A stretch of DNA of 64,000 bases from a virus (IMGVR_UViG_3300021426_000070:65360-129359), one strand, 5' to 3'. Shown: positions 2,709 through 52,455, counted from the first letter of the stretch. Numbers and translations are program-made. The notes: generated by a model from the letters alone, not told the origin.

Positions 2709-2813
2709 AATCTTATGCAATGTTTATCGTGTTGCCCCCACGTCTAAATGTTTTTGCAAAGATACGCATTTATACTTTAATAAACAAGAATTTAGACAAG
2801 AAAGTTATCTGAT

Positions 2814-3143
2814 TTAACTTTTATTCAGAATACGCTGCAATAATGTGCGTGATTTTAACTTTTCAATCTCGTCACGCAAATTTGCGACCTCTTCTAGCAT
2901 CTTATCATTCTTAGCTCGGTATTTTTGGCATTTCTCTTCCAACAAGTTATTGTTATGCCTAAGAGTGTCATTCTCTCTCTTGAACTTCTCGATATGCTCG
3001 GATAGAAAGGAGACTTGTCCTTTTAGGTCTCGCACCGTCTTTTCAAGTGACTTGATGGCAGCATTATTATAGAGATTATCCATTATGTTGCCTCTTATGA
3101 CTCTATTTGAGCCGCCTATACTTTCTACTTCTCTTTGTTTCAT
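2814..3143 (-). CDS. Coiled-coil hypothetical protein
   Basis: Heptad-rich; ends RTLLQRILNK. Confidence 0.7.
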   Translation of the reverse strand: MKQREVESIGGSNRVIRGNIMDNLYNNAAIKSLEKTVRDLKGQVSFLSEHIEKFKRENDTLRHNNNLLEEKCQKYRAKNDKMLEEVANLRDEIEKLKSRTLLQRILNKS

Positions 3144-3190
3144 AGTTATTCTATTGCTTTAAAAAGAGAAAAGGGCACTAAGCCCCTTTC

Positions 3191-3712
3191 TTATAGGTTG
3201 GTATTAATTACTTCGCCCATGGCGAAATAGAAAAGTAGTGGTCGGTTCTTCTCACCTCGTGCCTCGAAAGCCGCAAGGTCATCGTCAAGCTCATGACAAC
3301 CGAACTGCTCTTGTAGCATCTGAACATCTTCTTTGCAAAGAGCGATAACGCCGTTCTGAATGCACTCGCAATCCAAATGCCATGAATTGTTGTAGTTGTG
3401 GAAATGTACGCTGCGGACAATACGCAAAGGAGTGATAATACCCGCTTGCAGCATTTCTTGTGTTTCTTTGTCGTTCTTGTGCAGCTCAATGTAGCGGTCA
3501 ACGTTAGCATCGAACAGACGGCTGCAATAGTGCGGGCTGTAAGCACGGAACTCTACCGTCTTCTTACCATTCTTGATGTCCTCAGCGTAATTGCGCTTCA
3601 TAACCAAGTTAAGACTATCTACTGCCGCTGACTTAGGGCACTCGGGATGCGCCTTGTAAAAAGCTTCGTAACGCTGCATCCAAGCGTTCATTTCTTTTGC
3701 GTTCATACTCAT
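3191..3712 (-). CDS. ASCH domain protein
   Basis: LNLVMKRNYAEDIKNGKKTVEFR matches the ASCH GxKxxExR signature. Confidence 0.8.
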   Translation of the reverse strand: MSMNAKEMNAWMQRYEAFYKAHPECPKSAAVDSLNLVMKRNYAEDIKNGKKTVEFRAYSPHYCSRLFDANVDRYIELHKNDKETQEMLQAGIITPLRIVRSVHFHNYNNSWHLDCECIQNGVIALCKEDVQMLQEQFGCHELDDDLAAFEARGEKNRPLLFYFAMGEVINTNL

Positions 3713-3746
3713 TTGTTATTTTATCGTTTATTGAAATTTTTCAGAG

Positions 3747-3819
3747 TTGCGGCGGGGGAACTCGAATCCCCGACCTCCACCAAGTCAAAGTGGCAAGCTA
3801 CCATCTGCTCCACGCCGCG
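3747..3819 (-). tRNA. Atypical tRNA: initiator (fMet-type) body with GAC (Val) anticodon
   Basis: 73-nt cloverleaf CGCGGCG-TG-GAGC AGATGGTA GCTT-G-CCACT TTGACTT GGTGG-AGGTC-GGGGA TTCGAGT TCCCC-CGCCGCA-A; C1:A72 mismatch, A11:U24. Confidence 0.85.
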
Positions 3820-4318
3820 ATATTATTCTCTTGTTTATTATAAAACTTAAAGTACCTTTACTGCTTATATTATATTCTTGCATTAACTTCTTATATGATA
3901 CGCCATTTTGATTTTTCTTCTTTATCTCAAGTGCTATTTCGTCAGAAATCCTATTTTGTGTTTTTACCGCACTTGAAGCGTATTTTGCATTATAAACCCT
4001 AACTTCTTTAGGCACGTCCATCATATTTTCTTTATGTGTGCCAATATCTATATTACTATAGCTATTATCCTTAATATCGTTGTTTAAATGCCTTATTTCT
4101 AAATCTTTCTCATATATCTTATTACCAAACTTCTGATACGCTTGTAATCGATGGATATAAACCTTTATTACCTTCTTTTGGCTAACACGAACACCTAGAT
4201 ACATATAACCTTCTCTACCACAAGTACCTACTTTATTACCTCGTGGCGAATAGGCTTGTCCGCTTTTGTCAACGTAATAGCCCATTGATTTTGCAATCTC
4301 TTCGTAATGACTATACAT
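3785..4318 (-). CDS. HNH homing endonuclease (likely start 4318)
   Basis: YIHRL...IRHLNNDIKDNSYSNI...HKEN HNH_3-type motif, C-terminal HTH-like segment; AT-rich; promoter at 4339-4346. Confidence 0.85.
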   Translation of the reverse strand: MYSHYEEIAKSMGYYVDKSGQAYSPRGNKVGTCGREGYMYLGVRVSQKKVIKVYIHRLQAYQKFGNKIYEKDLEIRHLNNDIKDNSYSNIDIGTHKENMMDVPKEVRVYNAKYASSAVKTQNRISDEIALEIKKKNQNGVSYKKLMQEYNISSKGTLSFIINKRIISRRGADGSLPL

Positions 4319-4411
4319 ATCTTTTCTTTTCTCGCTTGCAAAGATAGCCACTTTATCTGACTTTGGCATATGTTTATCCATTTCTCTCGTTACCATTTAT
4401 AAAGTGTACCA

Positions 4412-4915
4412 TCAAGCGACCTTTGTTATAATAGTGCGGTATGACACGGACTTGATATTACCATCAGCGTCCATCAACCTAATCTTCTCGAGCATATAGT
4501 TAAACGAGACGAACTTGTATTCTACGCCATTGCTGACAACCCTATCGCCTACCTTGATATTACGGAAGCTGTCCTCTTCGAACTGCCGCCAAAACTCATC
4601 CTTGTCAAAGCCCTCGACCTCTTCGTCATTGGTATCGTCCCACACATCGACATTACCTATTGCATCAATGCCGTCAGCGAAAACATAGCCCGCCTCATAA
4701 TCTATCCACGTGCCGAAAACATGTTCAAAGTTATCGTCCCGAAACTCACTAGCATAAGTAACCTCTATATCTATCTGATACCTTACGCCTTCGTACTCTA
4801 CATAGATGGTAGGGTAGAAATCGAACCCGTCACCGCAGTCATAAGAAGACTGCTTATCCATAATCTTCTTATATACCTCTTTATAGAACTCTTGCGTAAA
4901 ATCAATGTGCTTCAT
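4412..4915 (-). CDS. Highly acidic hypothetical protein
   Basis: ORF track; D/E/aromatic-rich. Confidence 0.7.
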   Translation of the reverse strand: MKHIDFTQEFYKEVYKKIMDKQSSYDCGDGFDFYPTIYVEYEGVRYQIDIEVTYASEFRDDNFEHVFGTWIDYEAGYVFADGIDAIGNVDVWDDTNDEEVEGFDKDEFWRQFEEDSFRNIKVGDRVVSNGVEYKFVSFNYMLEKIRLMDADGNIKSVSYRTIITKVA

Positions 4916-4930
4916 ATCGTTGTGCAGTTT

Positions 4931-5143
4931 TTAATGTGAGTCATTTATATTGTTACCATCTAGATACCAATCATTCGTCTTCAAAACTTGCTCACCTGTT
5001 CTATTCTCACAAACTGCAATCCCACCATCATAAATACCATATGTATCTGAACAAGGGTCACATGCAAAATGGATATATACATCATACTCGTCTAATAACG
5101 ACTTGAGCTTATCTAAAAACTCTCTTTTCTTCTCATTTCTCAT
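4931..5143 (-). CDS. Hypothetical protein
   Basis: ORF track; preceded by motif-bearing leader. Confidence 0.7.
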   Translation of the reverse strand: MRNEKKREFLDKLKSLLDEYDVYIHFACDPCSDTYGIYDGGIAVCENRTGEQVLKTNDWYLDGNNINDSH

Positions 5144-5151
5144 AACTTTGT

Positions 5152-5276
5152 GCAGTTTTTAACGTGTGCCTCACGCTCTTAGAGAAAACCACCTATATCT
5201 TCACAGACGGGGTGGTTATAAACATTAGTAAAAAATTAACAAAAAATTAATAAAACTTGTAGATGATGCAAAGGTA
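5152..5276 (-). promoter_or_regulatory. Regulatory cassette: promoter TACCTTTG (5269-5276), GTGA-loop hairpin (5187-5217), pseudoknot-like leader (5152-5176)
   Basis: Same architecture repeated at 44447-44578. Confidence 0.7.
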
Positions 5277-5383
5277 AACAAAAAAATTTAACCCCGCAAG
5301 TTTTTACGGGGTTTTCTGTTCGACTTTAACGTTTATTAAACTATCAACAATCGAACAGCGTGGATGAAAGTGGTTGTTGTTAA

Positions 5384-15575: not shown

Positions 15576-17693
15576 TTAATCGTTTTGCAACCTTGCTTTC
15601 AACATAGTATTTCTTTTGAGCACCACCATGTTCTTGATGGCACGTCCCAACGCCCTAGAGTCACCTACGATGATACACAACTTCTTAGCTCGTGTAACAG
15701 CCGTATAGACGAGATTACGCTGCAGCATGATATAATGGCTCATAAGCAACGGAACGACCACCACGGGGTATTCTGAGCCTTGTGACTTATGGATAGTGGT
15801 CGCATACGCCAATGTAAGCTCGCTCAAGTCCTCACTCTCATAGACAACAGCTTGGTCGTTGAAATTCACCCTCAGCATACGCTCTTCGGTGTCTATGAAG
15901 TCGATAGTGCCAACGTCACCATTGAACACGTTCTTATCATAGTCATTCTTAATCTGCATGACTTTATCACCGCTACGGAACTTGTACTGCCCGACTTGGA
16001 TATACTCACCCTCGGGGTTCACCGCCTCTTGCAGAGCATTGTTCAGACTGACAGTACCCGCCTGCCCGTTCTTCATCGGCACTAGGACTTGCATATCATC
16101 AATAGTGTAGTTATATGCGTTAGGTATTCGGTTCTTGATAAGGTCAACGATACTATTAGCTGCCAACTGAGCATCCTCTTGCTTGATAAAGAAGAAATCC
16201 GTATCTTTGCCGTTTGACACATCGGGATATTCGCCCTTGTTAATCAAGTGGGCATTGGTCACGATACGGCTTGTAAGAGCTTGTCGGAAGATACGTGTGA
16301 GCCTTACCACGGGCACGACACCCGAATCAATGACATCCCTCAGCACGTTACCCGCACCGACACTCGGTAATTGGTCTATATCACCTACGAGTATCAGCCC
16401 CATCTTCTCGGGAATAGCCTTCATCAGCGAATGCATCAGCATGACATCTATCATCGAACTCTCGTCAACGATAAGCACATCACCATTCAATGGGTCATTC
16501 TCATTCTTCGTGAAACCTTTGTCGGGCATATATCCTAGCAGTCTATGGATAGTCTTTGCATCCTTACCCGTTGCCTCGCTCATACGCTTTGCGGCACGAC
16601 CCGTTGGAGCAGCACAGAGGATAACCTTGTCTTGCATCTCGAGGGCAGTAATGATACCTTGAACGGTTGTTGTCTTACCAGTGCCCGGAAGTCCCGTAAG
16701 CACCATCACCTTTGAGCGCATGGCTTGACGGATAGCATCGGCTTGTATATCGTCATAGTCCATCTGCGTTTTCTCGGAGACAGCCTTAATATCCACCTCT
16801 TTGTTCGACACACTACCCGACTTCAACAGCAGCTTCATCTTCTCTGCAATCCTCAGTTCGGAATAGTAGTACATCGGAAGGAAATACTTTTCATCTTCTT
16901 CTATAACCTCGAAAGCGAACGTCAGCAGCCCTAGACCCTCTTCAATAGCCGCCTCATCAGAGCCTAACAACTCTTTGGCAGTAGCCATAAGCTGAGACCT
17001 TTCGGCATAGCAGTGCCCGTCATTGGATAGCTGCGACAGCGTATATAGAATACCCGCCTTACACCTACGGACATCATTGAGCCCATAGCCAAAGGAACGG
17101 GCTATTTGGTCAGCCATCTTAAAGCCGATACCCGTCACATCATCAGCAAGCACATAAGGGTTTTCTTTAACCGTCTCAATACTCTTATCGCCGTATTGTC
17201 TGTAAATCTTTACCGCATATGCGGGGCTTATATCATGCCCTTGTAGGAAAAGCATAATCTCACGAACCTCTTTGTTCTTACCCCACGAGTCCTTAATCCT
17301 CTTAACCTTATCCTTGCCTAAGCCCTTGACCTTAAACAGCTCATCGGGATTATTATCCAAGATATTCAGCGTGTCCTTGCCGAAATGCTTGACAATAAGC
17401 TTTGCCGTCTTCTTGCCTATGCCCTTGATACAACCGCTAGCAAGATAACTCTCGATACCTTTCTCTGTAGCGGGCAGCTCTTCATACCATTTCTGTACGG
17501 CTAGCTGCCTACCATACTTTGTAGTCTGCCACTCACCTTCACAAACAAGCGTAGCACCGACAGAAACGCCTTGAAACGTACCCGTTATCGTATGATAGAC
17601 GAAACCACCATCGACAGACACTTGAAAAACTGAATAGCCGTTTTCTTCATTTCGAAAAACAACCCGTTCGATTACACATTTTAATTTATCCAT
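15576..17693 (-). CDS. recD2: RecD2-like SF1B helicase (likely start 17693)
   Basis: HhH motifs, GLPGTGKTT, APTGRAA, DESSM, GDIDQLPSV, TIHKSQGSE, YTAVTRA. Confidence 0.95.
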   Translation of the reverse strand: MDKLKCVIERVVFRNEENGYSVFQVSVDGGFVYHTITGTFQGVSVGATLVCEGEWQTTKYGRQLAVQKWYEELPATEKGIESYLASGCIKGIGKKTAKLIVKHFGKDTLNILDNNPDELFKVKGLGKDKVKRIKDSWGKNKEVREIMLFLQGHDISPAYAVKIYRQYGDKSIETVKENPYVLADDVTGIGFKMADQIARSFGYGLNDVRRCKAGILYTLSQLSNDGHCYAERSQLMATAKELLGSDEAAIEEGLGLLTFAFEVIEEDEKYFLPMYYYSELRIAEKMKLLLKSGSVSNKEVDIKAVSEKTQMDYDDIQADAIRQAMRSKVMVLTGLPGTGKTTTVQGIITALEMQDKVILCAAPTGRAAKRMSEATGKDAKTIHRLLGYMPDKGFTKNENDPLNGDVLIVDESSMIDVMLMHSLMKAIPEKMGLILVGDIDQLPSVGAGNVLRDVIDSGVVPVVRLTRIFRQALTSRIVTNAHLINKGEYPDVSNGKDTDFFFIKQEDAQLAANSIVDLIKNRIPNAYNYTIDDMQVLVPMKNGQAGTVSLNNALQEAVNPEGEYIQVGQYKFRSGDKVMQIKNDYDKNVFNGDVGTIDFIDTEERMLRVNFNDQAVVYESEDLSELTLAYATTIHKSQGSEYPVVVVPLLMSHYIMLQRNLVYTAVTRAKKLCIIVGDSRALGRAIKNMVVLKRNTMLKARLQND

Positions 17694-24827: not shown

Positions 24828-27800
24828 CTAACAATTATTACACCCAACACAAATCTCGTTACCACAGACGGGGCACGTGATATAATACTGATACTCGTTC
24901 ATGTGGCTCTGCTCCCTGCGGCATTCATTTGGGAAATAGCCCAACTCAGAACCACACTTATAGCACTTGGTACGCTTTTCTAAGCTACCTTTCTTGATAA
25001 TCCTTACCATAACTATTCTTGTTTTAGACTTATTTTTGCCAACGGCTCACTTCCTATCGCACTCGTCGGGTTCTCAGCGTCAACAGTCCATAGCGACCTT
25101 TCGGGAGCTTCCTTCCACAGCTGATGACGCATAACCCGATGTATATCCCAAAGGATATCAGCCGCATCGTCATAATGAATACCATACTGCCGTCCTCTGC
25201 CGCAATTCCAAAAACGGCTTTTTATCTGAGCGCATATCTCTTCTGCATCATGGCGCATATTATGCCAACCGCCTTCCCACTCGTCATCCATAAACGAGCC
25301 TACAGCCTTCTTGCAGCGTTTCTCCCAAGCATCCTCAAACAGACCTTGATAAGCAGAACCTTGACCTTGTATGAGCCTCGGAAACTGGTCACAGACATAC
25401 GATAGAAGTTTTGCTTGTCGCTCTGACAGCTCTAACAGATATCTCTTTTCCATATCACTTCTTGTTTACCTCAATCTCAATCTTTGACGTAAAAACAGAA
25501 TCAAGCACCTCACACGTCTCAAGCTGACGCTTCACCTTACAACGCTCACACGTACATAGATGCTGCTGCTTAATAGGGAATAACGAGCGTTTCGCTACAT
25601 CATACAGCGTCTCACCAATCACAACGCCTACCAATGCTGCAGACGCATACACAACCCAAACAATTAAATACTTTTTCATTTATAAATCCTTTCTTTTATA
25701 TACAAATAATCACTTTCCCTCAATAAGAAAAAATTCTCACACTCATACCAAAAGCCATCAAGCTCAAAGGAAACACTGCTTATAAGCATGCCTATATCTA
25801 TATTTGTATGCCCCGTCTTCTCTACTATAAGATAGGTCATTTCTCGCAGCTCTTTAAACACCTCTCCTAATGACTTGATACTATTAGCACCAACGAGCCA
25901 CGGCTTACCAAACATATAATACAAGTCTTTTCTTAGCTCAATCATGACAACGCCGCCCATTTCAAAGAACTTTTTCACTCTTATCTTGTTGTTCATTTTT
26001 CTCTCTTTCTATTCGTTTTAAAACTTGTGTTACCTTTCTCGAATATTGCACTTTCTCACGCCCACCTTTGTAGCGATACCAATTACGCCACTCTTCCTTG
26101 CGGCTCTTCTTTTCGGTTCGGGGCTCTTTTTCCCTACCGCCGCAGAAGGTCTTACGCTCCAATAGGCTATCCGTGTTTAGCTTACTGCAATAGTAAAAGC
26201 CGTGCCCACCGCCCTCAGAGGCGAAAAGCCAATGCTTACAGCCCGCACAGAATATAGTATTTGCCATTACTTAATCTTTTATTCTTTTAGTTCTTTTCTT
26301 GTCATAGCTGTTTTTGATTCTTATCTCCCCAAGTTACTTTATAATCTTCTTTAAATGATAAAACGCTACCACGAAAAGCAACACTACATTCCATATAGTC
26401 GCTATTCATAATACGCTCTATCTGCTTCTTAACGTAAGTATCTCCTACACCGATGCAGTTAAGATAACCGCTATCTGTTGACTGCCATTCTTCCTTTTTC
26501 ATAACCTATTCCTCTATAACATCTATTAGCGCACAATGCTCCAACAAATCCTCTTTGAGCTTTGCAAATTGGCAGCTAGAGACAACATGCTTTATCAATT
26601 CTCTTTTATGCGTCACCGTCATAATATGCTTGCCGTCATTTGTGGTGGCAATAATCTGTAATGATTCAATATCGTCTGATGTCATTTCTCTTTCCTTTCC
26701 TTATAGTCTTTGAAACGTTTAAATACTTCTTGATAAAATCCCCAATCTCTTATTCCATCCCATGGTGTACTATGTAACCATTCATCTTCTAAAAGATTGG
26801 CAATTTTTACAATTTCTGCCATGTCTCTCCAATTGGGTTCTAAGTCACTCACCGCTTTATTGTAGCCTTTAACAAACGCATGTACGCATTCAATATCAAC
26901 CTCCGCTGGCTCATAGTCACCCGTCCCAAACGCACCGCTTGATGGGGTTGTATATAGCTGTACCGCATAATCTTCTATCTTACTCATATCTCGTCATCAT
27001 CATTTAATTTCATACCATACCGATAAACATCAACAACTATTCTTTCATTGGGCTTTTTGGTCTTCACCAACTCATTAATACCCTCCATAAATGAATAAAA
27101 CTCTGCATTATTCATCTGTCATTGCTTGTTTTAAATCGCTAATAAAATCTTCTGTCATACCCGACTCTCCTTTAAATTCATTATACCATGTGTAGGTGTC
27201 AGCATGCTCTTTTAGCCACTCATAGATTTCGTTCCTCGCAATCTCCACAGCCCTCCTTGCTTGGTCGGGAGTGAGCCATGGGTGATATTCTTTCAAACGT
27301 CTAATGCCATTTTCAAAATATTCGGGAAAATCATATTCATTGCTACAATTTCTTGTGCAATTACTGATAAATTCTTCTGCTTTACTCATAATTCTATTTC
27401 AATTTAATCTTACATACATGCAAGTGCTTTGTTTTCAAATCTTTTGTAGATGTTCCGAAGTACGTTTTTGGTGTTCTCGGAATCTTTTGCAATTGGGTGC
27501 GAGCAACGAGAAAAGAACACATCTTCAAGGTCTCTTGCATCCCAATCAAACTCAAGTCCTTTGTGGTAAGGGCACTTTCTACATCTGACACTTCCCACTT
27601 TTATAGGCAAACCACTCAAACGACACTTCTCATCATTCCGTCTGATATGCCAATCACGGGTGATTTTTGTTGTATTGTAATCATAGGTCATCATACGTCA
27701 GTCCTCCCAATCTTGTGTAGCTTTATCAAACACGCCCATAACGGCATCATAATCCCATTCATACAAAGGAACGCCATTACAACAAAGCACCTTACAGCAC

Positions 27801-30800
27801 TCAATAATCGACTCTACAATACTCGAATCCATACATTCAAGTTCTTCTCTTATTTCTTTCTTACCCATACGTCAGTCAGCATTAATTGTGATTACTTTTA
27901 CTTTGTCGCCGCTATGTAAAGGGTGTGTTATACCTTCTTGTTTTATAAGGTGTCCTCCAAGCAATGTTCCATCAACAGCCTTTGCCATTAGCTGCTCTTT
28001 CTGCAACCTCATCCCATACTTGATAGCATCGTCAAAGGTTGGCGGGCGGTGTTCTTTCTCAATTATATCAAACACAAAGTCACGTTCTACCTCTGCCTCT
28101 TCCTCTGTCTGTGCATCACAGGCAGCAAGGCTGTTCTTTTCAAACTGCCCTATTTGCCAATTAGCACCAAAGCAAACAGCACGTCTTAATTGCAGTCTGT
28201 AGCCTAACTTGTCTGTGATGTTGTTAGCATACTCTTTTGCAGCAGTATTCAAGTCCTCGCTTATAGGCTCTTCTTTATGATACTCATTGACAATGAATTG
28301 GTGGTACTCGTCCATCGCCTTTCTTATCGGTCTTGTGTCACTTGTAAGATATGCCATGTTGGAGTACATCTTATCAGCCAATTCCTTAATCTTTTCAAGT
28401 TTTTCTTTGTCTGTCATAATCAATCTTTCTTAATTAGAACTACACTATACTTATCACCTTCTTTTGCCAAAGGAATATCCTTGTCATAGTCGTAGAGTTC
28501 CATTTGTGGGATATATGGGTAGTTACCATTATCAATGTGTACTGTAACATCAACAGCTTTTTTCATCATCTGCTCTTTCTGCCAGTTAGCACCGAACTTG
28601 ATAGCCTTTATTATTAGAGGTATATCATCTTTCTTTATAGGACTTTGCTTAAATCCGACATCTATGTAGGTTATAAAGTTTTCGGGGTTTGAACAGTACT
28701 CGCCTATTGCCTCTTCCAAATCCTCGATTATAGGCTCATCTTGCAAATATTCTATTGCTTTTATAATTGGAAGGCGATGTGGACTTGTTACGCCCAAGTC
28801 ATCAAGCACATCTTTTAGATTTGATATTATTTTCTGTACTTTGTCTGTCATATTTTATCCCTCTTTAATGATAATCATCTTACATTTGTCCGTGTCTTTT
28901 AATCCCAAATCATCAAGGCAGATTGGGTAATGGGCAATAGTTCCATAGGCTTTTCCTTCAATCCCATAAAACTCAAAAGTAGCGTGCCCATCAACAGCTT
29001 TTTTCATCATCTGTGCCAAACGCCACTCAGCACCCGAAATAAAGCCGCTGTACCTATCAAGGTTATACCCTACTTCGGTATCATCAGACCTCACGACTTT
29101 AGCATCTTCCCTTGCCGCCTTGTCTAATTCATCGCTTACAGGCTCTTGTGTTAAGGAATTGCCATTTTCTTTACACGTTTTATCATCATGTTTAGAAACA
29201 AGTGATTCTTTAACTTGTTCCTCGCTTACAGGCTCATCTTCTATGGAGTCGATATACATTTCCAATGTGGTGCAAATTCTATCTGCATAGTTTACGGAAA
29301 TGTTATCACCATCCATAGTTGGTAGTAAGTTATGCAGTCTTACAACCTCTTCACGGATTTTCTGTACTTTGTCTTTCATAACTCGCTATTCTTTTGTTCT
29401 ATTATGTTTGGATGCACGTTTTTTCAAAACAGCACCCCACCACTCAAGTCCTCTTCCTTCGGCTATCGCCTCTTCTTGAGTCATTTCCTCAATTGGTTTT
29501 ATTATATCATTCATAACTTATAGTTTTAATAAATCCTCAGTTCTCGCCCAAGAAAGTACATCACTAAGCTTGCAATTAATGCAACACTCGCTCACGCAAC
29601 CCGTATAAAAGAGCCCGTTAGCATAGATACAAACATATTTGCCATATTTACTAACGATAAGGCACTCGTTCTTTGCGGATGGCTCTTCGGTAGCCTTATG
29701 CCACACATCGGTTGGTCGCTCGTTTTGCTGCTCAATGAATCCAAGCAACTCCGTTAAAACCGCCTTCTGCCCGACTGCAAAATCGGACTTAAGCCCCATC
29801 ACCTTTAGCCGCAGCCTTTCTATCTCTCTGTATATCTTTGTAACTGCATCCATGTTATTTATTCATCTTTGAGGTTGTTTGCGCCCCACGCAGCAAAATC
29901 CAAACACAACTGCTTAACGATATGCTTTGCCACATGTGCAAATTGTAGGCAGTTTATTGTCTGCCATAACGTGTTAAACTCGTTCTCAAAGGCTGCTTTC
30001 TTCTCACCACGCAGCACGATAGGAGTTCGCTTTCTGTTCAGCCGACTTACAAAACCTTCAGCCACCTCTTTTTCAATACCCTCTAACCGCTCACCATCCA
30101 TGCTGTCAAGCAAACAATCAACCTCTGACAAGGCATTGTACCTACCCTCATCAAAGAACGAACGGAAATTCTTGTTTTCGTCCATGGTGTCGCTCTGCAG
30201 TTTGGCTATCTGTTCTCTCAGCATCTTTATTTCGTCACTAAGCTGCTTTCTGCCATCGTCTGCGCTCTTTTGCTTATCACCACGATAACCAAGACGTGAT
30301 GCAGCAAACTCAACGAAATCATTTTGCAGTCTTGCGGCTTCTTCAGCGGAAAGGTTATATCCGCCCGTACCCGTAAGCATACCCCAACCACGGACACACA
30401 GCAACGGAGTGTGACCATCACATATATACTGCCCGTCAGCACTGATGCCGATGTCATCAAACCCCTTAGCATTATGTACGTAATTAAGGCAGTCAGCAAT
30501 GCGCTCACCAAGCTTTGCATCCCGCTCGTCCATCACGTCAAAGCATACTTGTGTACCGCCATTACACCAAATGTAACAGCAATTCTCATCAGCCTTGAAC
30601 GGGGCTTTGAAAACGTCATAATATTCTAACTTTGCCATAATCAAAATACTCTATGTTCGATAATCTCCACGTCCTTGAAATCCTTAGTGTACTCTTCTGC
30701 ATACTCTAAGGTAGAGAAAAACTTTCTCTCTTTATACGGCGTATCATTACACTTGTAGATAGCCTCATAGACACAAGCTTTCACATCAAGAGTATTGGCT

Positions 30801-33100: not shown

Positions 33101-33231
33101 ATATCTATCACAGTTTTCTAACGTGTGTCTCACGCTCTAATTGAACTTTCATGGTGCAAAGATAGCACTTTTTATTTTAATTTGCAACTTTCTGAGCAAA
33201 AATATTATTAAATTTAACATTAATTAAGGAA

Positions 33232-33259
33232 CCGCCCCTATCTTCACAGACAAGGGCGG
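33232..33259 (-). terminator. GTGA-loop hairpin after the distal-tail gene
   Basis: CCGCCC-TTG-TCT-GTGA-AGA-TA-GGGGCGG. Confidence 0.6.
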
Positions 33260-33294
33260 CGTACAAAAAAATTATCAAGTAAAACGAGAAAAAA

Positions 33295-33736: not shown

Positions 33737-36700
33737 CTATTGTTCCTCTACGTATTTTCTTATTCTTGATAGTTCCGAATCCATGTTCTTGATACGGGGC
33801 ACGAGGGTATCAACCACGCCGTCCCTAATCTCTTCCACATGGATAGCCATGCCCGCTAGGATATCCCTCGAGTCGTCAGCTACATCATAGCTCTCTCTCA
33901 TATGGATAAACATTTCATCAAAGCGGGTATTGATAATATCCAACCTCTCACGAGACTGCTCAACGGCAGCTTGTGTGGATATGCCTATTCCGACAAGCGA
34001 ATTGGCTTGGTCATAGGATATGTTTGCCATGCTCTTTGCCGTGGCACTCTGATTGAAGTTATCCGTGCTAGCGATAATACCCGCCTCCTTATATTCGTTA
34101 ATGTCGCTCTGTGCTTTCTTAACGATGTCTTGGTATTCGGCATTGAGGTCTCTTAACCGCTGCTTGTATATATCATTGGTCATCAAATCATCCTTATTCT
34201 CTTGCTTTTGCTTATTCAGTTCATAAAGCTTCTGCCGCCACCTACTCAATTCATCTTGGTACTTCTCTCCGACAAGGTTGTTGATAACCATCTTATTGAC
34301 CATTTCTTGCCAACCCTTTGATATGTCGGTGAACACCTCTTGCGAGCCGTCACCGAGCGCATAGAGCTGATTAAGGAAATCGCTGAACACACTTTCCTCT
34401 GTCGTGGTGGTCAGCTTCTCCATGATACGCTCCGTCAACTCTTCGGTCTTACCCGCCTGCTCAACAACAGCATCCCAATATTCGGACTTGTCATATTTTC
34501 CTACTTCTGTAAGATAACGCCAAAGGTCGGGTGCGAAATCCCTAATAGCCTTCAGTTGCTCGGGGGTGAGGTTATAGATAGACTGCAGACCCGTGACAGT
34601 TGACACTTTCACGCCCGCAGTACGCATAGCCTCTTGTGCCGCCGCATTATACTTCCTTATCTCTTCATCATCAGCATAGTAGGCATTAGAGTGGTGTGAG
34701 CTGTGATACCCCATCTGAGCTTGCAGTATCTCCATGTTGTTCTTGTTCACTTTCTCTTGCGACTCCAACGCTTTCTGATAGACAGACAACGCCTTGCTAC
34801 CATAGGACTTATCCATGATACCCGTCAGCGACTCGATGGCACGTATAAGGTCTTCGTTCTTCTTTGTCAACCTCTCTGTGGTCTCAGCAACCTCTTTTTC
34901 ATTACCGCCACCCCAATTGATACCAAAAGCCCTACCGATAGCACTTCCAAACCCTTGTATTCCGTCAACAACACCATTGATAGCACCAAACACATCACCT
35001 TGCATTAGGCTCTGAACTCCTTTTTGGAAACCATCCATACCTTTTGCAAAATCGGCAAACCCCTTTCCAAATTCAGTATTACCTAGTCCGATATTACCAA
35101 GCAATGCATTTGCACTCTGCGCATTTTGGTTTATTAAGCTAAAGATACCCGTAGCATCCATACCTGCTGTCACGTCCTTGAAATATTGTCCGATATTTCC
35201 ACTCTTAGTAAAATTCTTTAGCGCATCTTGACGTGCCTTTTGATTAGCTTGAGCTTGTTTTAAGTCCTCTTCTGCCTTTGATAAGTCGTATGTTGTCGTC
35301 TCTAATACCTCAAACGCCTTTTTGACAGATTCGGAAGATTCAATCTCATTTTTATATCTCTCTTTTATACTATCAAGACTACCGTTATCAATCTTCTGCC
35401 ATTGTTGACGGAAAGAACCCTCAGTAATATTTGCGCCCTTTTTATTAACGGCACTTACAAACTGAGAAATAGCCTTTTCTTGACTTACACCCTTTTTGTT
35501 TCTAACAGTAGTCAAACCATTTATCTGTTGTTCTACCTCAAGAATTTCTTGTGTCAGTCGCTTTCTTTCCCTAAGTCCCGGCAGCCACGATGAAAACACA
35601 TCTGTCCTACGGGCAATATTATCTTCTATCTCCCTTATCTTCTCAGCGAGCACCTTTGCGTTCTCAGCTGTGATATCTTTTGCATCGAGGGCTTGGGCGA
35701 GCTGCTTTTTCAATGTCCGTAACGCATCTACACTCTGATATTCGAGATTATTAAAAACCGTCTCCCAATCAAGTGACTGCTGCAACTCTTTCATATTCAG
35801 CTCTGAGATAAGCCTTTCTTTCTGTCGAGCCAAAGCCGCCTTTTGGATTTCGTCTTGTTCCTTATCTATCTTTAGGTCGTATTCCTTAGTGATAGCAGCA
35901 CGCCTTGTTTGGAAATCACCATACTCTTTCTGATAATCAAGTAATGCTTGAATGCGTTTTTCATTCTCACTCTCCATGGACTGCTGCATTTGTTTATCAG
36001 CGGCAATAAGTCGAATATCCCTATTCTCTATTTCTTTCGGGTCTCTATACGAAGAAGTCTCTTTATACTCGTCTGAATCAAAGAAGTTCTTCCCTTTATT
36101 TTTCTCGTCTTTCTCCCACAAAGCTTTTGCTGCTTCTATACGTTTAATACGCATATCCTCGTACGAACGTTGAATAGCCAACACCTCTTTATCGTGGTCA
36201 AGCTTTATGCGCTCAATCACTTTTTCTGTTGACTCGTCCATAGCCTTAATTCGGGCTTCACGGGTTGAAATCTCCAAATCCTCTTCTGCACGTTTCTGTT
36301 CACGTGCTTGCTTATCCATAAGCTCCTTACGCTCTTGTGCTAGCTCCGCTGCTGTCTTGCCACCACCGCCTTTACCACCTTTATCTGTCGGCTCATAAGT
36401 CTTGATGTTGGCATTGGCAAGCTTATTCTTTTCCTTCTCCAACTCCTTATTCGCCTTATCAGTTAGTTTCTTCTGCTCGTCTTCGTACTTCTTGTTACGC
36501 TTTTTATCTTCTGCAGCAGCTTTGGCACGTTGACTAGCTGCATAATTACTACTATATTGATTAACACGTCTTGCTCCTTGCTCAGTCCATTTACCGTCTT
36601 TGGTGTCGCCTTCCATAAACGTATAACCAGCCTCTTTTGCATTCTTATATGCAAGACTTCTTCTATCCGTGGTATTACCTCCCGCCTTTACACGATAAGA

Positions 36701-39208
36701 ATACTGACCACCTTTTGCCGTTGCATTATTTTGGTCAGCTTTCATTTGTTCCTCTATCTGCTTCTTAAAGCTCTCAGTCATCAGCTCTTGATATGCAAGT
36801 GCCTTTGCCCTAGCCATGATAGATTCAACTACTGCATCGGTATTCTTCACTAGAAGATTCTCTGCATCTGTCACGCCGCCAACTGCAAACCCGAGGTCGT
36901 TAAAAGCCTTTTGGTTATCCTTGACAAACTTCTTTTTCTTTGCCATATCATCACCAAGCTTATTCCAACTATCTTGCAGCTTTCTATAAGACATTATCTG
37001 TTTCGATGCACTTTCAGCAACAGAACGTGCCCAACTCTCTTGCTGCTCCTTGATAGCCTTGATATGTGCCTCTTTCTCTTCTCTCGCTTTCTTCTCAGCA
37101 TCCGTCTCAGACATAAGAGCCTTTGTAACAGCAAAGATAGCTGCTCCCAAAGTAACAAGAATAGCGACAATAGCACCCCAAGGAGTCTTTGACATAGCCG
37201 CATTAAGCCCCTCTTGCGCTGCCGTTGCTGCTGTGGTCGCAGCCGCTTGTACGCCACGAGCCTTAGCCAAAGCCCACGTCTTAGCCTCCTCAATGGCAAT
37301 CATGAAGACACTCGTCTTCTTAACGAGGTTATATGTAGTCTCTAATCCTACAACTATTCCGAGGATAGATTGGACTTTGGTTTGAATCTCCATCATCTTC
37401 TTACTATCCTCATTGAATATTCCTATAACGGAAGTAACCATACTAGCCGCTCCCGCCACACCTTGAAGACCAACCTTTAACGCCGTCAGTCCTCTGTTCG
37501 GGTCATCGAAATAGCTCATATAGGCATTTGCCAACTGCATTTCCTCTCGCATATCGCCCGCTTTCTCTGCAAGCTCCATAAACTCAGCCGACCCTTTCTT
37601 TCCTTCCTCTATGAGCTGTATCATTTCTTCACGGGCTTTCATAATCCTAGTACGCATAGTACCAGAATGTATGGCACGTTGCTCCGCTTCTTGCTCTTGT
37701 ATGCGAGCTAACTCAGCTTGCTTTTTCTGTTCTTCAATAATATTCTTTTCCTCTTCATCTATCTCTCCTAGACGTTCGAGTATATTCAAAAGCCTTTCAT
37801 ACCTCAGACTGCCGACTTCTGTACCAGACCTGTCGAACATATCTGCAGTTGATTTGACTTCGCTTAATTTTGCTCCTATTTTCTCTGCCTCCTTCACGAG
37901 CTTATCACCTTCAGAGGTCATATACATATCCTTTGCCTTCTCTTTTATCTGTTGAAGAATCTCAGGATATTTACCCATCACCTCTTGGGCTTGCTCTGCA
38001 CGTATACGTGCGTCTTGAGCATTATCACCCCATACAACAAAGGATTTTCCTATTTCGTCTGTGAACGTAAGAAAGTAAGCGAATTTTTCTCCGCTTTCAC
38101 CTAACTCTTCATTCTTTTGTTTAAGAGACTCTTCTTTCTCTTCTAACTCGGCAATCTTATTTCTCAGTCCTTCTAAAAGCAGTTCTTTTTCCCTAATTAT
38201 CTCATTAGCTTGTATAGCTGCTGGGTCATTTTCAGACAACCCCTTTATACCTTCCTTAAGGTCGCCAATAGTAGATTCAATAGAAAGAGCGTCTTCTTTC
38301 AACTCTTCTAAATAACTATCTCCTTGTACCTTTTTAAGTTTGATAGTTAATTCGTCTATCTCATTATTAAGATTACTAATTCGTGTCTGAGCACCTTCCC
38401 ACTCTAAAGAACCTTGAGGTAGAGTTAAAGATTTCTTTACGGTTTCTTGTAACTCTTTCGTCTTTTCCTCTATCTCTCTCTTTATTGTATCAGTATAAGA
38501 GGGGATTTTCGGCGGCTCTGCTCCCATCTCTTCTTTTTGATTCTTTATAGCTTCTGTGTTCTCATTTACCGCCGTAGTTTGCTTTTTAATCGTTGCTGTT
38601 GTGTCATCAATAGAACCTTTCACCTCTTCCTCAATAGCTGCACGCTCGCTTGCTGCCTCATTCAAGCTTTGGGCTTTGATATTCTGCTGTGTCATAGACA
38701 TAACGCCCGCTTGCTGCTGCTGTAGGATATTGGTATTCTGTGCGGCTTGGTTAGAAAGGTTCAACTCTTGCCGCTTCGTCTCATCAGACAGCTCAGACAT
38801 ACAATCAGTAATCTTCGATATAACATCGGAAGACTCTGTAAGACTGCCTATAAGGTCTTTCGTCTCTTTGATATAGTCGTAGAGCTCACACACCTTTCCA
38901 ATGACTTCATCAAAGGACTTGCTAATGGTCTTTGTCGCTTGGTCGGCATTATCCTCTATACCCTTGTAAGGGTTGTTAGACGAGCCACTGAACACATCGG
39001 AAAGCTTATCATTCGCCTGCTGAGTGGTCTGTATGATATCTTCATACTTTCCTTTGAGCTCATCAAGCTTTGATATAAGCCTACCAATCTCTTCACGGGG
39101 TGCATCGGTATTTGACTTCTCCAAAGCACTATTAAGCTTCATAATCTCATTATAAAGCCTCTCTACCTCTTTCCAATCTGTCGATACGTGATATATCAGT
39201 TCTGCCAT
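33737..39208 (-). CDS. Tape measure protein
   Basis: 1823 aa, coiled-coil, Ala-rich hydrophobic segment (PWGAIVAILV), followed by distal-tail-like gene. Confidence 0.85.
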   Translation of the reverse strand: MAELIYHVSTDWKEVERLYNEIMKLNSALEKSNTDAPREEIGRLISKLDELKGKYEDIIQTTQQANDKLSDVFSGSSNNPYKGIEDNADQATKTISKSFDEVIGKVCELYDYIKETKDLIGSLTESSDVISKITDCMSELSDETKRQELNLSNQAAQNTNILQQQQAGVMSMTQQNIKAQSLNEAASERAAIEEEVKGSIDDTTATIKKQTTAVNENTEAIKNQKEEMGAEPPKIPSYTDTIKREIEEKTKELQETVKKSLTLPQGSLEWEGAQTRISNLNNEIDELTIKLKKVQGDSYLEELKEDALSIESTIGDLKEGIKGLSENDPAAIQANEIIREKELLLEGLRNKIAELEEKEESLKQKNEELGESGEKFAYFLTFTDEIGKSFVVWGDNAQDARIRAEQAQEVMGKYPEILQQIKEKAKDMYMTSEGDKLVKEAEKIGAKLSEVKSTADMFDRSGTEVGSLRYERLLNILERLGEIDEEEKNIIEEQKKQAELARIQEQEAEQRAIHSGTMRTRIMKAREEMIQLIEEGKKGSAEFMELAEKAGDMREEMQLANAYMSYFDDPNRGLTALKVGLQGVAGAASMVTSVIGIFNEDSKKMMEIQTKVQSILGIVVGLETTYNLVKKTSVFMIAIEEAKTWALAKARGVQAAATTAATAAQEGLNAAMSKTPWGAIVAILVTLGAAIFAVTKALMSETDAEKKAREEKEAHIKAIKEQQESWARSVAESASKQIMSYRKLQDSWNKLGDDMAKKKKFVKDNQKAFNDLGFAVGGVTDAENLLVKNTDAVVESIMARAKALAYQELMTESFKKQIEEQMKADQNNATAKGGQYSYRVKAGGNTTDRRSLAYKNAKEAGYTFMEGDTKDGKWTEQGARRVNQYSSNYAASQRAKAAAEDKKRNKKYEDEQKKLTDKANKELEKEKNKLANANIKTYEPTDKGGKGGGGKTAAELAQERKELMDKQAREQKRAEEDLEISTREARIKAMDESTEKVIERIKLDHDKEVLAIQRSYEDMRIKRIEAAKALWEKDEKNKGKNFFDSDEYKETSSYRDPKEIENRDIRLIAADKQMQQSMESENEKRIQALLDYQKEYGDFQTRRAAITKEYDLKIDKEQDEIQKAALARQKERLISELNMKELQQSLDWETVFNNLEYQSVDALRTLKKQLAQALDAKDITAENAKVLAEKIREIEDNIARRTDVFSSWLPGLRERKRLTQEILEVEQQINGLTTVRNKKGVSQEKAISQFVSAVNKKGANITEGSFRQQWQKIDNGSLDSIKERYKNEIESSESVKKAFEVLETTTYDLSKAEEDLKQAQANQKARQDALKNFTKSGNIGQYFKDVTAGMDATGIFSLINQNAQSANALLGNIGLGNTEFGKGFADFAKGMDGFQKGVQSLMQGDVFGAINGVVDGIQGFGSAIGRAFGINWGGGNEKEVAETTERLTKKNEDLIRAIESLTGIMDKSYGSKALSVYQKALESQEKVNKNNMEILQAQMGYHSSHHSNAYYADDEEIRKYNAAAQEAMRTAGVKVSTVTGLQSIYNLTPEQLKAIRDFAPDLWRYLTEVGKYDKSEYWDAVVEQAGKTEELTERIMEKLTTTTEESVFSDFLNQLYALGDGSQEVFTDISKGWQEMVNKMVINNLVGEKYQDELSRWRQKLYELNKQKQENKDDLMTNDIYKQRLRDLNAEYQDIVKKAQSDINEYKEAGIIASTDNFNQSATAKSMANISYDQANSLVGIGISTQAAVEQSRERLDIINTRFDEMFIHMRESYDVADDSRDILAGMAIHVEEIRDGVVDTLVPRIKNMDSELSRIRKYVEEQ

Positions 39209-40174: not shown

Positions 40175-40264
40175 TTTTTATCGACAAACGCCGACAAACA
40201 TTAAATATGTGTTAAATACACACTAAAAGGCAGGAGATACAGAGAATTTTCCTACCTTTGTCAT

Positions 40265-40345
40265 GTGATAAGGATATTAGTATTTCTTGCTTGCTTTATA
40301 GCGGGCGCATGGGTTTGCCACACCACATATAAGAAACGGCACTAG
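40265..40345 (+). CDS. Leaderless 26-aa hydrophobic peptide MIRILVFLACFIAGAWVCHTTYKKRH
   Basis: GTG 4 nt after TACCTTTG (40253-40260); one hydrophobic helix plus basic tail. Confidence 0.45.
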   Translation: MIRILVFLACFIAGAWVCHTTYKKRH

Positions 40346-44446: not shown

Positions 44447-44578
44447 GACAGTTTTACGAGTGCCTCTCGTTTTATATCGTTTTACTTTTCTTCTAAGAAA
44501 ACCACCTATATCTTCACAGACGATGGTGGTTGCAAACATTTTTAAATATTAATTATTGCATATGGTATTGCAAAGGTA
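44447..44578 (-). promoter_or_regulatory. Regulatory cassette: promoter (44571-44578), GTGA hairpin (44500-44531), pseudoknot-like leader (44447-44470)
   Basis: Hairpin nearly identical to 5187-5217. Confidence 0.7.
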
Positions 44579-49586: not shown

Positions 49587-49672
49587 ATCATAGTAAAATT
49601 AAAACAACAATCAGTCCGTATAACATCATCTGAGTACCGCAGCCACAGTACTTTACCTCTTCCTCAATCTTA

Positions 49673-50572: not shown

Positions 50573-51259
50573 TTATTTTAAGCCAAACTCTTTTTTAAAT
50601 CTTCTGTATAGCAATAATCTTTGCGCTATACCATTATTACCTCCATTAATTACTTTGGTAATCCTTTTTACTATCTCTTCACCAAACATTCCACCATTAT
50701 CACCATCTGCGATTTGGTTTATTTTATTTTTTTCCCAAAACCACATAGCACTTAACTGAGCAAGGTAATACTTCGGATTACTCTTATTCGCCTTACCCAC
50801 AGAATCGGGGTCGCTGAGTACGTTAGCCGTGCATAGGTCATACTTACTGAACGCCATGTAGTTATCCTTGCCCGTCAATTGAATATATCCACGTCCTCTG
50901 TACTTCCACCCGTCACCGCTTGCCTCGCTGCCATTACCCATGCGGTTAGCATAGACCTTATTAGCAATCTTCTGAGGGTTACGGGCATAGGCTTGTGCCG
51001 TCTGTGCATTGAAATACTTTGGAAAGGTCTTTAACAAGCCATCGGCGGAATAATTCAGATTTTCTTCTGTGGCTTTTAAGTAGTTCGATTCGAAAACTGC
51101 TTGTGAAAGATAATGAATAATCCTCTTTGTAGAATTTATACCCATACTTTCAGCCCACATATTAAAACTTGCTACAAAGCAATCAAGCTCTTCATCGGTA
51201 GGCGATGCTATGCCTACAAGAGCCCTTACAATCTGTTGTTTTGTCAATTGCATAATCAA
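50573..51259 (-). CDS. Endolysin, glycoside hydrolase family 19
   Basis: ES..L...EENLNYS, YANRMGNG, DGWKYRGRGYIQLTG, ITKVINGG. Confidence 0.92.
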   Translation of the reverse strand: MIMQLTKQQIVRALVGIASPTDEELDCFVASFNMWAESMGINSTKRIIHYLSQAVFESNYLKATEENLNYSADGLLKTFPKYFNAQTAQAYARNPQKIANKVYANRMGNGSEASGDGWKYRGRGYIQLTGKDNYMAFSKYDLCTANVLSDPDSVGKANKSNPKYYLAQLSAMWFWEKNKINQIADGDNGGMFGEEIVKRITKVINGGNNGIAQRLLLYRRFKKEFGLK

Positions 51260-51349
51260 TCTTCCATATTATTTTCCTTATCATAATGCTCTTCATCACC
51301 TTTCTCTTCGTACTCGGTAAAAAGAGCATTGATAAATCTGATGATATTT

Positions 51350-51841
51350 TTAAACTTTCTCATTGCTTTCCTTGAAAAAATCTTCGGTAGATAGACGCAC
51401 ACGATTTGGGCAACCGACAACTTGACATACAAAAGGGAGAGCCTTCTGCAGTTTAAGTGAGTTATCAAGCATGACCTTTTTCATTTCTGATATCTCGCCC
51501 TCATGCTTCTTCTTAATGTTCGACATTTCTTCCTCATAAGCACTCATCTTCGTACGCATCTGCTCCTTGTCAGCATCATACTCACGGAACTTCTGAAGGA
51601 TATTATTGTAGTCATCAAGAAGGCGTTGGTTCTCTTCCCTCAGCTTTGAGTTCACGCTGTTACTCATCTGTAAGGCGTTTGTATAAACCTCTTGCCACTC
51701 CTTAGCTGCCACAGCCTCTTGTTGGATAGCTGCGCTTTTCGCTTTCTTACGCTCCCATCTTGCAGTGAAGAGCCATCCTAGACCGCCACCGCCCAACAGC
51801 GTAAGTATATTCATTAACATATCGGAATACTGCTCTACCAT
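51350..51841 (-). CDS. Holin-like membrane-anchored coiled-coil protein
   Basis: N-terminal LLGGGGLGWLF helix, coiled coil, C-terminal C....C..R; upstream of lysin; promoter at 51862-51869. Confidence 0.55.
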   Translation of the reverse strand: MVEQYSDMLMNILTLLGGGGLGWLFTARWERKKAKSAAIQQEAVAAKEWQEVYTNALQMSNSVNSKLREENQRLLDDYNNILQKFREYDADKEQMRTKMSAYEEEMSNIKKKHEGEISEMKKVMLDNSLKLQKALPFVCQVVGCPNRVRLSTEDFFKESNEKV

Positions 51842-51961
51842 CTATCTATCTATCTTTTTTGCAAAGATACGCAGAAAATTGACAATCTGTATCTTCTGCC
51901 GCAGAACAATATGGAACATTTTTAAAAGTGTATGAAAAGAGAGGCGTTTAAGCCCCTCTAA

Positions 51962-52195
51962 TCACACCTTACACTCACCTCTGAGACGTTTGAAAGCCCG
52001 TTCTAACGTCCGTGTGCTAACACCGAGCTCTTCCGCTAGCTCTGTAATCGCCGCAATGTGCTTTACATGATAACCTCGCATACAAAGATACTCTTCGTAA
52101 GCCTTTACATACTTGTAATCATCAAGAAACAAACCATTTTGGTTCATCAACGATAGCACGTGAGTGCTAATTTTAAGTAGCTCAACCACTTTCAT
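51962..52195 (-). CDS. Small HTH protein (likely start 52195)
   Basis: LAEELGVSTRTLERAFKRL. Confidence 0.75.
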   Translation of the reverse strand: MKVVELLKISTHVLSLMNQNGLFLDDYKYVKAYEEYLCMRGYHVKHIAAITELAEELGVSTRTLERAFKRLRGECKV

Positions 52196-52455
52196 AATAA
52201 ATGTTTTTAAAATTATTACTATATTTGCAACGTGGTTGGTAAAGAGAGGAATTACTTGCTTGCGAAAGTAGGTGTTCCTCTTACTTTTTACAAAGATAGT
52301 CATTTTTGAGGTTACAGCATACAAACCACACCAAGAAACAAGTCACACTTTTGAATATGTGCGCAAATTTAAAATTGGTTAAATATTTGGCTGTTTATAT
52401 TTTTATTATTACCTTTGCCTAAAAAATAAGAGAGGCACTCATAAAAAACTGTTGT

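Follow-up and report, generated by a model that had tools for sequence, protein, structure and literature searches.

A widespread, start-codon-linked leader RNA of gut phages with a probable mini-pseudoknot fold

A repeated leader unit in a 129-kb phage

The DNA analyzed here, IMGVR_UViG_3300021426_000070:65360-129359 (64,000 nt; hereafter the window), makes up the latter half of one IMG/VR phage record, 129,359 bp long and complete according to CheckV. The phage carries ~238 open reading frames (ORFs), 215 of them on the minus strand. Megablast of 20 kb of its DNA gave no GenBank phage match and tblastn with its helicase recovered only human faecal phage fragments, indicating that the phage has no cultured relative among GenBank phages. 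Just upstream of start codons in this window recurs a short unit that comprises a 3–6-bp hairpin (S1) with the loop AGRCA, a 5–10-nt A-rich linker ending in AAAC, and a tail, UGY, that can pair back to the loop in a second helix (S2). This leader RNA is uncatalogued, widespread and linked to the start codon, and in kind would belong with the cis-acting leader pseudoknots.

The original prediction had drawn six such sequences. All six are present at the positions and on the strands it gave, and each precedes an ATG that opens an ORF on its own strand, 2 to 9 nt past the end of the unit:

5152..5177, minus strand: canonical unit; stem AGCGUG/CACGUU, loop AGGCA, linker AAAAAC, tail UGC (GCA/UGC); 8-nt gap to the ATG at 5143
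33110..33136, minus strand: canonical unit; stem AGCGUG/CACGUU, loop AGACA, linker AGAAAAC, tail UGU (ACA/UGU); 9-nt gap to the ATG at 33100
44447..44470, minus strand: canonical unit; stem ACGAG/CUCGU, loop AGGCA, linker AAAAC, tail UGUC; 7-nt gap to the ATG at 44439
52430..52453, plus strand: canonical unit; 3-bp stem GAG/CUC, loop AGGCA, linker AUAAAAAAC, tail UGUU; 2-nt gap to the ATG at 52456
2717..2742, minus strand: divergent unit; stem CGUG/CACG, 7-nt loop GGGGCAA, linker AUAAACA, tail UUGC; 8-nt gap to the ATG at 2708
4924..4945, minus strand: weak, degenerate unit; AAUG/CAUU, loop ACUCA, AAAAAC, UGC; 8-nt gap to the ATG at 4915

A covariance model built from 12 in-genome copies (R1) matched the four canonical units at E = 4.9e-9 (5152..5177, with a predicted hairpin energy of -5.4 kcal/mol), 1.5e-8 (33110..33136), 4.7e-8 (44447..44470, where loop and tail pair as GGCA/UGUC with one G-U) and 9.1e-8 (52430..52453, whose ATG starts a LuxR/GerE-type regulator of 184 aa). 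The remaining two sites are atypical. At 4924..4945 no stable hairpin is predicted (0.0 kcal/mol), loop and tail mismatch, and R1 gives E = 8.3. The unit at 2717..2742, whose ATG opens a 30-codon ORF, has a 7-nt loop and keeps loop-tail complementarity as a 4-bp GCAA/UUGC variant; it had no match to R1 in the genome scan. Within the window GAGRCAC and AAAACTG each occur near chance frequency, yet four times they lie within 15 nt of one another, and the six-site pattern exceeds chance by far.

Across the whole 129-kb phage there are ~14 copies, and R1 recovers 11 sites at E = 1.7e-9 to 1e-5. Eight further copies lie in the other half of the genome, outside the window:

Genome coordinates 7862, 16287, 16509-16544, 26606-26714 (three in tandem), 29868, 40200 and 61798: extra copies of the unit

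The distance from loop to ATG is 26–30 nt in the 11 minus-strand copies measured and 23 nt for the plus-strand unit at 52430-52453. A TA[TC]CTTTG promoter box stands upstream of 11 of 12 copies of the genome, at anywhere from 20 to 134 nt from the loop. In the window, five of the six sites follow such a box, as originally proposed, with the box 23–113 nt upstream of the loop; it is absent at 4924-4945, a copy between two genes that retains the 26-nt spacing. The boxes in question are as follows:

52410..52417, plus strand: Bacteroidota-type -7 promoter box TACCTTTG, 12 nt before the unit
33157..33164, minus strand: promoter box TATCTTTG, 20 nt before the unit
2757..2764, minus strand: promoter box TATCTTTG, 14 nt before the unit
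5269..5276, minus strand: promoter box TACCTTTG, ~105 nt upstream of the loop; second hairpin between box and unit
44571..44578, minus strand: promoter box TACCTTTG, ~113 nt upstream of the loop; second hairpin between box and unit

Because the loop-to-ATG distance is near constant while the promoter distance varies several-fold or the box is missing, the element tracks the start codon, not the promoter or the transcription start. Genes with the unit have small products of early type, namely a 296-aa HTH/sigma-region-4/alpha-CTD-like protein, a LuxR/GerE regulator, WYL_2, DUF3846, an amidoligase and unknowns.

The tandem copies at genome 26606-26714 (minus strand) follow a TATCTTTG promoter. 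In this array, locus L003, a frame of 355 codons starts at an ATG 10 nt past unit 1, spans units 2 and 3 and continues into an amidoligase. Pfam and PHROG matches in that frame begin only at residues 63–110, so the true start may lie downstream of the array.

In four long leaders a second hairpin, whose loop is conserved and which runs into a U-tract, stands between promoter and unit, and the unit still adjoins the ATG. The copies of this hairpin, in leaders or between genes, are as follows:

5188..5216, minus strand: second leader hairpin; ACCACC/GGUGGU, conserved 17-nt loop (..GUCUGUGAAGAUAUA), then UUUUCU
44501..44530, minus strand: further copy of the second leader hairpin; ACCACC/GGUGGU, same loop core
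33225-33260 of the window, minus strand: other copy of the second hairpin
29900-29935 and 40230-40265 of the genome, minus strand: other copies of the second hairpin

Its stems (ACCACC/GGUGGU, CUGCC/GGCAG and GCCGCCC/GGGGCGG) close a conserved 15–17-nt loop with GUCUGUGAAGAUA and are followed by UUU(C). The loop resembles the tail-spacer-AUG region of motif-bearing leaders (CUGUAAGAUAUAUG). No second hairpin with the GUCUGUGAAGAUAUA loop was found in 1.2 Mb of related loci. In appearance it is terminator- or attenuator-like; candidate roles are an attenuator, a decoy or the end of a short small RNA.

Distribution among large and small gut phages

A strict pattern, GTGAGRCACACGT-N(0-5)-AAAACTG, occurs in >115 IMG/VR contigs among the matches listed. 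In 596 Gb of prokaryote genomes the same pattern occurs at 26 places only, where a rough estimate expects about a dozen by chance. These cellular matches form two groups, Bacteroidota contigs and Blautia/Lachnospiraceae genomes, and in the second group the units make up a 2–3-unit tandem array within prophages. Aligned by reference, 121 distinct units align cleanly (alignment A6), and a second covariance model, R2, was built from them; R1 misaligns units with a C-G closing pair. On 30 whole records R2 finds 11–23 dispersed copies per 95–222-kb Bacteroidales-type phage and a single array per 19–41-kb phage that uses Shine-Dalgarno (SD) signals (Lachnospiraceae (pro)phages).

In the small SD-using phages the array directly precedes an AAAGGAG SD and the ATG of a gene beginning M..PMNLQxFAE, whose product matches Pfam Phage_scaffold below the threshold. 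The final unit lies flush against the SD, and within these tandem arrays the stem differs from unit to unit. The original prediction had placed the element in a phylum that largely lacks SD signals; this restriction falls, since the unit also stands in tandem directly upstream of a canonical SD in Blautia/Lachnospiraceae prophages. Carried by phages and abundant in gut viromes, the element is not limited to a phylum lacking SD signals.

The tie to the start codon extends across contigs. Each ORF was read from the first ATG to give ≥35 aa, with families defined by the 25 N-terminal residues. Among the 27 families not flagged scaffold-like, two of which actually begin like the scaffold family, the distance from the UG of the tail to the AUG is 10–13 nt in 19 and exactly 11 nt in 12; the other families stand at 6, 8, 15, 16, 18, 19, 27, 35 or 63 nt. 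The 3′ edge of the unit lies ~8 nt before the AUG, where the SD duplex normally sits.

Several loci bear separate mention. One unit family lies 18 nt upstream of a 378-aa protein in large phages (L032:9942-9970, L052, L064, L073, L085 and L111), whose N-terminus (MISYKYKLYRTKKTKHL...) we take to resemble that of a TnpB/IS605 OrfB-type protein. At a Firmicutes prophage locus (L143:3090-3125, plus strand) a canonical intrinsic terminator is followed after ~30 nt by the tandem array, with no obvious sigma-A promoter between the two; the equivalent region of locus L130 has just a hairpin, without a U-tract. Production of scaffold and capsid may rely on read-through or processing. On a contig of a Paraprevotella metagenome-assembled genome (L135), spacer 60 of a 65-repeat CRISPR (clustered regularly interspaced short palindromic repeats) array spans a mini-pseudoknot with its spacer region; 32/33 nt agree with the IMG/VR contig behind L028, which links the motif-bearing phage lineage of L028 to Paraprevotella (Bacteroidales). 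No spacer convincingly matched the 129-kb phage beyond the 24-nt motif core.

Pairing within the hairpin and, probably, between loop and tail

The stem was tested free of circularity, with the loop AGRCA and the tail AAC-UG as the anchors and no stem demanded. At least three inner pairs form in 127 of 177 distinct anchored sequences, against a mean of 46 and a maximum of 61 in 1000 shuffles of the 3′ arms. In A6 the inner pairs 4-14, 5-13 and 6-12 each take 2–4 Watson-Crick types (GC 107/CG 14; UA 75/GC 42/AU 4; GC 86/CG 20/UA 12/AU 3 among the 121 units), and the stems observed are GUG/CAC, GAG/CUC, GGG/CCC, CGG/CCG, AGG/CCU and GUGC/GCAC. The covariation score of S1 is 0.44 versus 0.136 shuffled, a value that none of 500 shuffles reached, and drops to at most 0.153 once the 3′ partner columns are slid by 1–3. 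Hence, the hairpin is strongly supported by covariation, and the compensatory stem changes remarked on in the original prediction recur among these units.

G-U pairs are present in the outer stem and in the loop-tail helix, where the opposite-strand equivalents are A-C mismatches, and every copy is oriented as its downstream gene. The functional strand is therefore that of the mRNA. The covarying half-sites, the G-U pairs and the gene-following orientation likewise rule out a dimeric DNA operator.

S2 is harder to judge by the same means. Two of its three pairs (A-U and C-G) are fixed by the search anchors and are uninformative. The third, between loop R and tail Y, is AU in 68 of the 121 units, GC in 15, GU in 13 and unpaired in 25, with the mismatches mostly in the tandem arrays of SD-using phages. 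Counted over distinct sequences, a tail C never accompanies a loop A (0/92) and accompanies a loop G in 15/29. Counted over independent loci with two chance-like cellular matches dropped, the figures are 0/29 versus 7/15 (p = 1.7e-4); with those two matches retained, p = 0.003. Orthologous leaders of one unannotated gene in two Bacteroidota genomes read AGACA..UGU and AGGCA..UGC. In two paralogous leaders of the phage, which share promoter and flanks, the loop changes from AGACA to AGAGCCA alongside a change of tail from CUGU to UAGGC, so that ACA/UGU becomes GCC/GGC and complementarity is kept. Other contigs supply the variants AGAGGCA/UGCC and AGCGGGA with UCCC or UCUC. A small subclass with loops UGGCA/CGGCA and tails CCGU/GGUC pairs only in a shifted register.

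The compensatory loop-tail pairing of the original prediction is thus borne out in part: tail C occurs only with loop G and four kinds of variant stay complementary, but the third pair is mismatched in ~20% of units. Its H-type topology, from hairpin loop to 3′ tail, gains some backing from the covariation and the compensatory variants. As judged from these alignments the pseudoknot is probable, not proven, and the loop-tail helix is less strongly backed than the hairpin. Its proposed dimensions are 3–6 bp for S1, 2 nt for L1, 3 bp for S2 and 5–10 nt for an A-rich L3, in a total of 24–30 nt; such dimensions are typical of small H-type knots of the classical kind.

Three other identities were tried and rejected. 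As an intrinsic terminator, the hairpin runs into an A-tract, not a U-tract. As a sigma-type promoter, the units lie downstream of TAnnTTTG boxes, with the ATG 2–10 nt on or an SD directly after. As a promoter for a phage RNA polymerase (an N4-like hairpin), they follow host-type promoters, are found in temperate Firmicutes prophages as well, and again have an SD directly after. No RNA polymerase was recognized in the two giant ORFs tested. One of these (window 58662-63896, minus strand; 1744 aa) has a C-terminal Peptidase_S74 (endosialidase chaperone) domain, typical of tail fibres and spikes; the other (window 33737-39208, minus strand; 1823 aa) has no Pfam match.

Known relatives and candidate functions

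Rfam 15, searched at gathering and at permissive E-values with the window, one site region and two tandem arrays, returned only tRNAs and noise; for no site or array is there a match among the catalogued RNA families. (A tRNA with anticodon GAC is called by ARAGORN at window 3746-3819, minus strand, where the Rfam tRNA model is silent even at E ≤ 5.) The original prediction had likened the topology to that of preQ1-I aptamers, which are small H-type leader knots with a 5-bp P1, an A-rich strand ending in AAAC and a weak 3–4-bp P2. The likeness holds for the probable fold of the element, a leader knot of this type with an A-rich strand ending in AAAC before S2, for the tandem copies met with at times, and for the place beside the ribosome-binding site. 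Membership is not borne out. The preQ1-I model (RF00522) had no match at E ≤ 10 in 4880-5280, at E ≤ 5 in the whole window, or at E ≤ 1 in the tandem arrays. The loop, ~11 nt in preQ1-I, is the 5-nt AGRCA in 121 units, and S2 would use its last 3 nucleotides, so that L2 = 0 and there is neither an L2 pocket nor a ligand-pairing C. Queuosine/preQ1 genes are absent among the downstream genes (WYL_2, HTH/sigma-like, amidoligase, DUF3846, LuxR/GerE, scaffold-like and others), and the element is present in 11–23 copies per large phage genome. Frameshifting knots of luteoviruses (of the beet western yellows virus type) have near-equal dimensions, with a 5-bp S1, a 2-nt L1, a 3-bp S2 and an A-rich 6–8-nt L2/L3 in the S1 minor groove, but belong to eukaryotic RNA viruses, where they follow a slippery site within coding sequence.

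The nearest analogue in distribution is the SAS/ESAS family of Cluster K mycobacteriophages, for which a role in translation initiation has been proposed and whose function is unknown (PMC3203893). Both are repeated motifs that stand in one orientation a few nucleotides before the ATG of unrelated non-structural genes. SAS differs in being a 13-nt GGGATAGGAGCCC with an SD core, 3–7 nt from the start (PMC3203893), in being limited to one phage cluster, and in having no covarying pseudoknot; the element departs from SAS in both consensus and spacing. The T4 gene 32 leader has a small H-type pseudoknot, then an A/U-rich stretch before the start, and controls translation; it is a lone autoregulatory site that nucleates gp32 binding, farther from the AUG (PMC3014915), whereas the element precedes many unrelated genes. 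In tisB, a 5′ pseudoknot and a single-stranded region form a standby site that depends on protein S1 (PMC7708055), and ACA motifs and A-rich leaders enhance initiation, with ACA in the loops of S1-selected pseudoknots (PMC3879156). The element resembles these in its probable 5′ pseudoknot with a single-stranded A-rich region, which in tisB loads the 30S subunit through S1, and in its ACA loops. It differs from tisB, a single E. coli locus with a standby site ~100 nt upstream of a sequestered ribosome-binding site, and has no sequence similarity to it.

Two further families share its repetition. STAXI (RF01728; PMC2864571) is a pseudoknot unit in 2–3 tandem repeats, on mobile elements and of unknown function, but it comes from Enterobacteriales, where UUCG tetraloops cap the units and ssb, antirestriction and integrase genes are close by; the STAXI model had no match in the L023 and L065 arrays, where the loops are AGACA, not UUCG. 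PeSL cassettes of T4-type phages (PMC2839356, PMC4122927) repeat an early promoter and stem-loop between small accessory ORFs, but are composite terminator/promoter DNA, thought to be recombinogenic, with no tie to the start codon and no reported pseudoknot covariation. Candidate phage RNAs have been compiled in large catalogues (PMC10690425, PMC8040213); the element is not mentioned in the passages searched of PMC10690425.

We favour, at a probability of a little under 0.4, a cis-acting leader pseudoknot that would act on translation initiation as a ribosome-docking or standby element with a positive effect. Translation initiation is indicated by the start-codon linkage, the specificity for the mRNA strand and the position of the 3′ edge. 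The compact knot, with its ACA and A-rich nucleotides exposed, would hold the 30S subunit (by its platform or through protein S1) beside the start codon, and selected phage mRNAs would thereby gain efficient initiation. The beneficiaries would be the first genes of early, host-promoter-driven units in the large Bacteroidales phages and the scaffold gene in the small Firmicutes phages. We infer both the ribosome as target and the positive direction. Near-identical cores in two phyla point to a universal partner such as the ribosome, not a phage-specific protein. A positive role is favoured because ACA and A-rich leaders are known enhancers, because the tisB standby site consists of a 5′ pseudoknot and a single-stranded stretch, and because the sole site of the small phages is a multi-unit array before a high-output scaffold gene.

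Several observations weigh against this proposal. The direction of effect is a guess, and a fold so near the AUG could equally inhibit initiation. No convincing complementarity of loop or tail to 16S rRNA was found in Bacteroides intestinalis or Blautia; we rejected such pairing as evidence, as the only matches are 6–8 nt including G-U, fall in buried regions and are at chance level. S2 has at most 3–4 bp, and the A-A or A-G mismatches at its third pair reduce it to 2 bp in the fifth or so of units that have them. The 3-bp hairpins are marginal by themselves (-1.6 kcal/mol predicted), so that together with so short an S2 folding may need a partner. Certain gene families have spacings of 16, 18, 35 or 63 nt. 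Lastly, the element is not required for translation in this phage, many of whose promoter-proximal genes have leaders that lack it and are short, unstructured and A-rich.

A more specific form, which strikes us as rather doubtful, is an SD-independent ribosome-recruitment signal in which the helix, at the position of the SD:anti-SD duplex, would dock on a conserved feature of the 30S subunit. In Bacteroidota the anti-SD is sequestered. Such a signal could let phage mRNAs out-compete host mRNAs there, and in Firmicutes would act as a standby pad. The universally conserved apex of 16S helix 13, CUG-AGACA-CGG, a 3-bp stem with an AGACA loop (nt 323 in Bacteroides intestinalis, L156; nt 336 in Blautia, L154), has the very sequence of the motif core UGAGACAC, and bS20 contacts U323/G324 of that loop (PMC2847233). 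The chance of such an 8-nt identity is ~0.02 for the core 8-mer alone and ~0.5 for any 8-mer of the motif. The element might thus be an rRNA mimic, a lead only, with a chance match possible.

An operator for a trans-acting RNA-binding protein of phage or host, repressing or timing the translation of early genes after the manner of T4 RegA, gp32 and E. coli ThrRS, is on balance unlikely, although much of what we see would suit it. Only a subset of promoter-proximal genes bears the unit; an invariant loop and tail on a free stem are typical of protein-recognized hairpins; a protein bound at this place would compete with the 30S subunit; and weak hairpins would gain from stabilization by a partner. 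Phage precedents have been reviewed (PMC3014915). The spread of the element argues the other way, since unrelated 95–222-kb Bacteroidales phages and 19–41-kb Lachnospiraceae (pro)phages are unlikely to have a protein in common. No candidate partner gene was identified, and arrays of 2–3 units before a scaffold gene poorly suit the shut-off of early genes.

The placement of the Firmicutes arrays, immediately past an intrinsic terminator and ahead of the scaffold gene, would also fit a 5′ mRNA stabilizer or processing boundary. The knot, which may include an A-minor triplex, would protect the downstream cistron by marking a cleavage site or by halting decay that runs 5′ to 3′ or depends on the 5′ end. 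The unit does lie near the transcript 5′ end in several leaders, and its conservation could stem from the needs of the fold itself and not from a partner. We hold this to be improbable: it leaves unexplained both the sharp 10–13-nt spacing to the AUG and the adjacency to the ATG where the promoter is >100 nt away, and the stems are short and of low stability.

That the units sit in operon leaders just past promoters brings transcription elongation into question as well, whether through a hairpin-stabilized pause or a nut/put/ops-like loading site for antitermination. A UG lies 7–10 nt after the hairpin, loosely as in class I pauses; pause hairpins and NusG paralogues are employed in Bacteroides CPS (capsular polysaccharide) leaders (PMC11685472); and RNA polymerase with its Nus factors would be a universal partner. 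This too seems to us distinctly improbable, as the element is tied to the start codon and not to promoters or terminators, one copy lies between genes with no promoter, and the terminator-like hairpin of the long leaders is upstream of the unit, not downstream. The spacer from hairpin to UG is also variable, often below the 10–11 nt of known pause hairpins, and a boxA-like U-rich core is absent. Explanations of some other kind are given a similarly small share.

Among the three functions named in the original prediction (enhancer, operator, riboswitch), a riboswitch is the least likely. A small molecule or ion would here stabilize the weak S2, as in preQ1-I, and the H-type fold with AAAC just before the S2 strand, the tandem arrangement and an aptamer-like conservation across phyla give the idea some appeal. 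The lack of any Rfam riboswitch match, of an L2 and of an evident pocket in a 5-nt loop make it very unlikely, as do the heterogeneous downstream genes with no common metabolic theme and a copy number per phage genome unlike that of known riboswitches; moreover, S2 leaves the start codon and the SD unsequestered. Least credible of all is a spreading promoter-leader cassette, a recombination boundary in DNA like the PeSLs with no RNA function of its own: paralogous leaders in the phage do share promoter, flank and unit over ~70 nt, and units flank small accessory ORFs as PeSLs do (PMC2839356, PMC4122927), but the compensatory changes that maintain both helices, a core conserved across phyla between unrelated flanks, and the fixed spacing to the ATG mean that it may explain the unit's spread and not its retained pairing.

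The element may bear on how start codons are chosen without SD pairing in Bacteroidota and in the phages that dominate the human gut virome. It is compact (25–30 nt), abundant and covarying, stands at a fixed distance from the start codons of many unrelated genes, and is found in Firmicutes prophages as well. Were it instead an operator or a stabilizer, it would still define a large uncatalogued RNA family. If it does recruit ribosomes or control initiation, it would add a class to the known translation signals, help to annotate the true start sites and early transcription units of uncultured gut phages, and offer a portable part for gene expression in Bacteroides.

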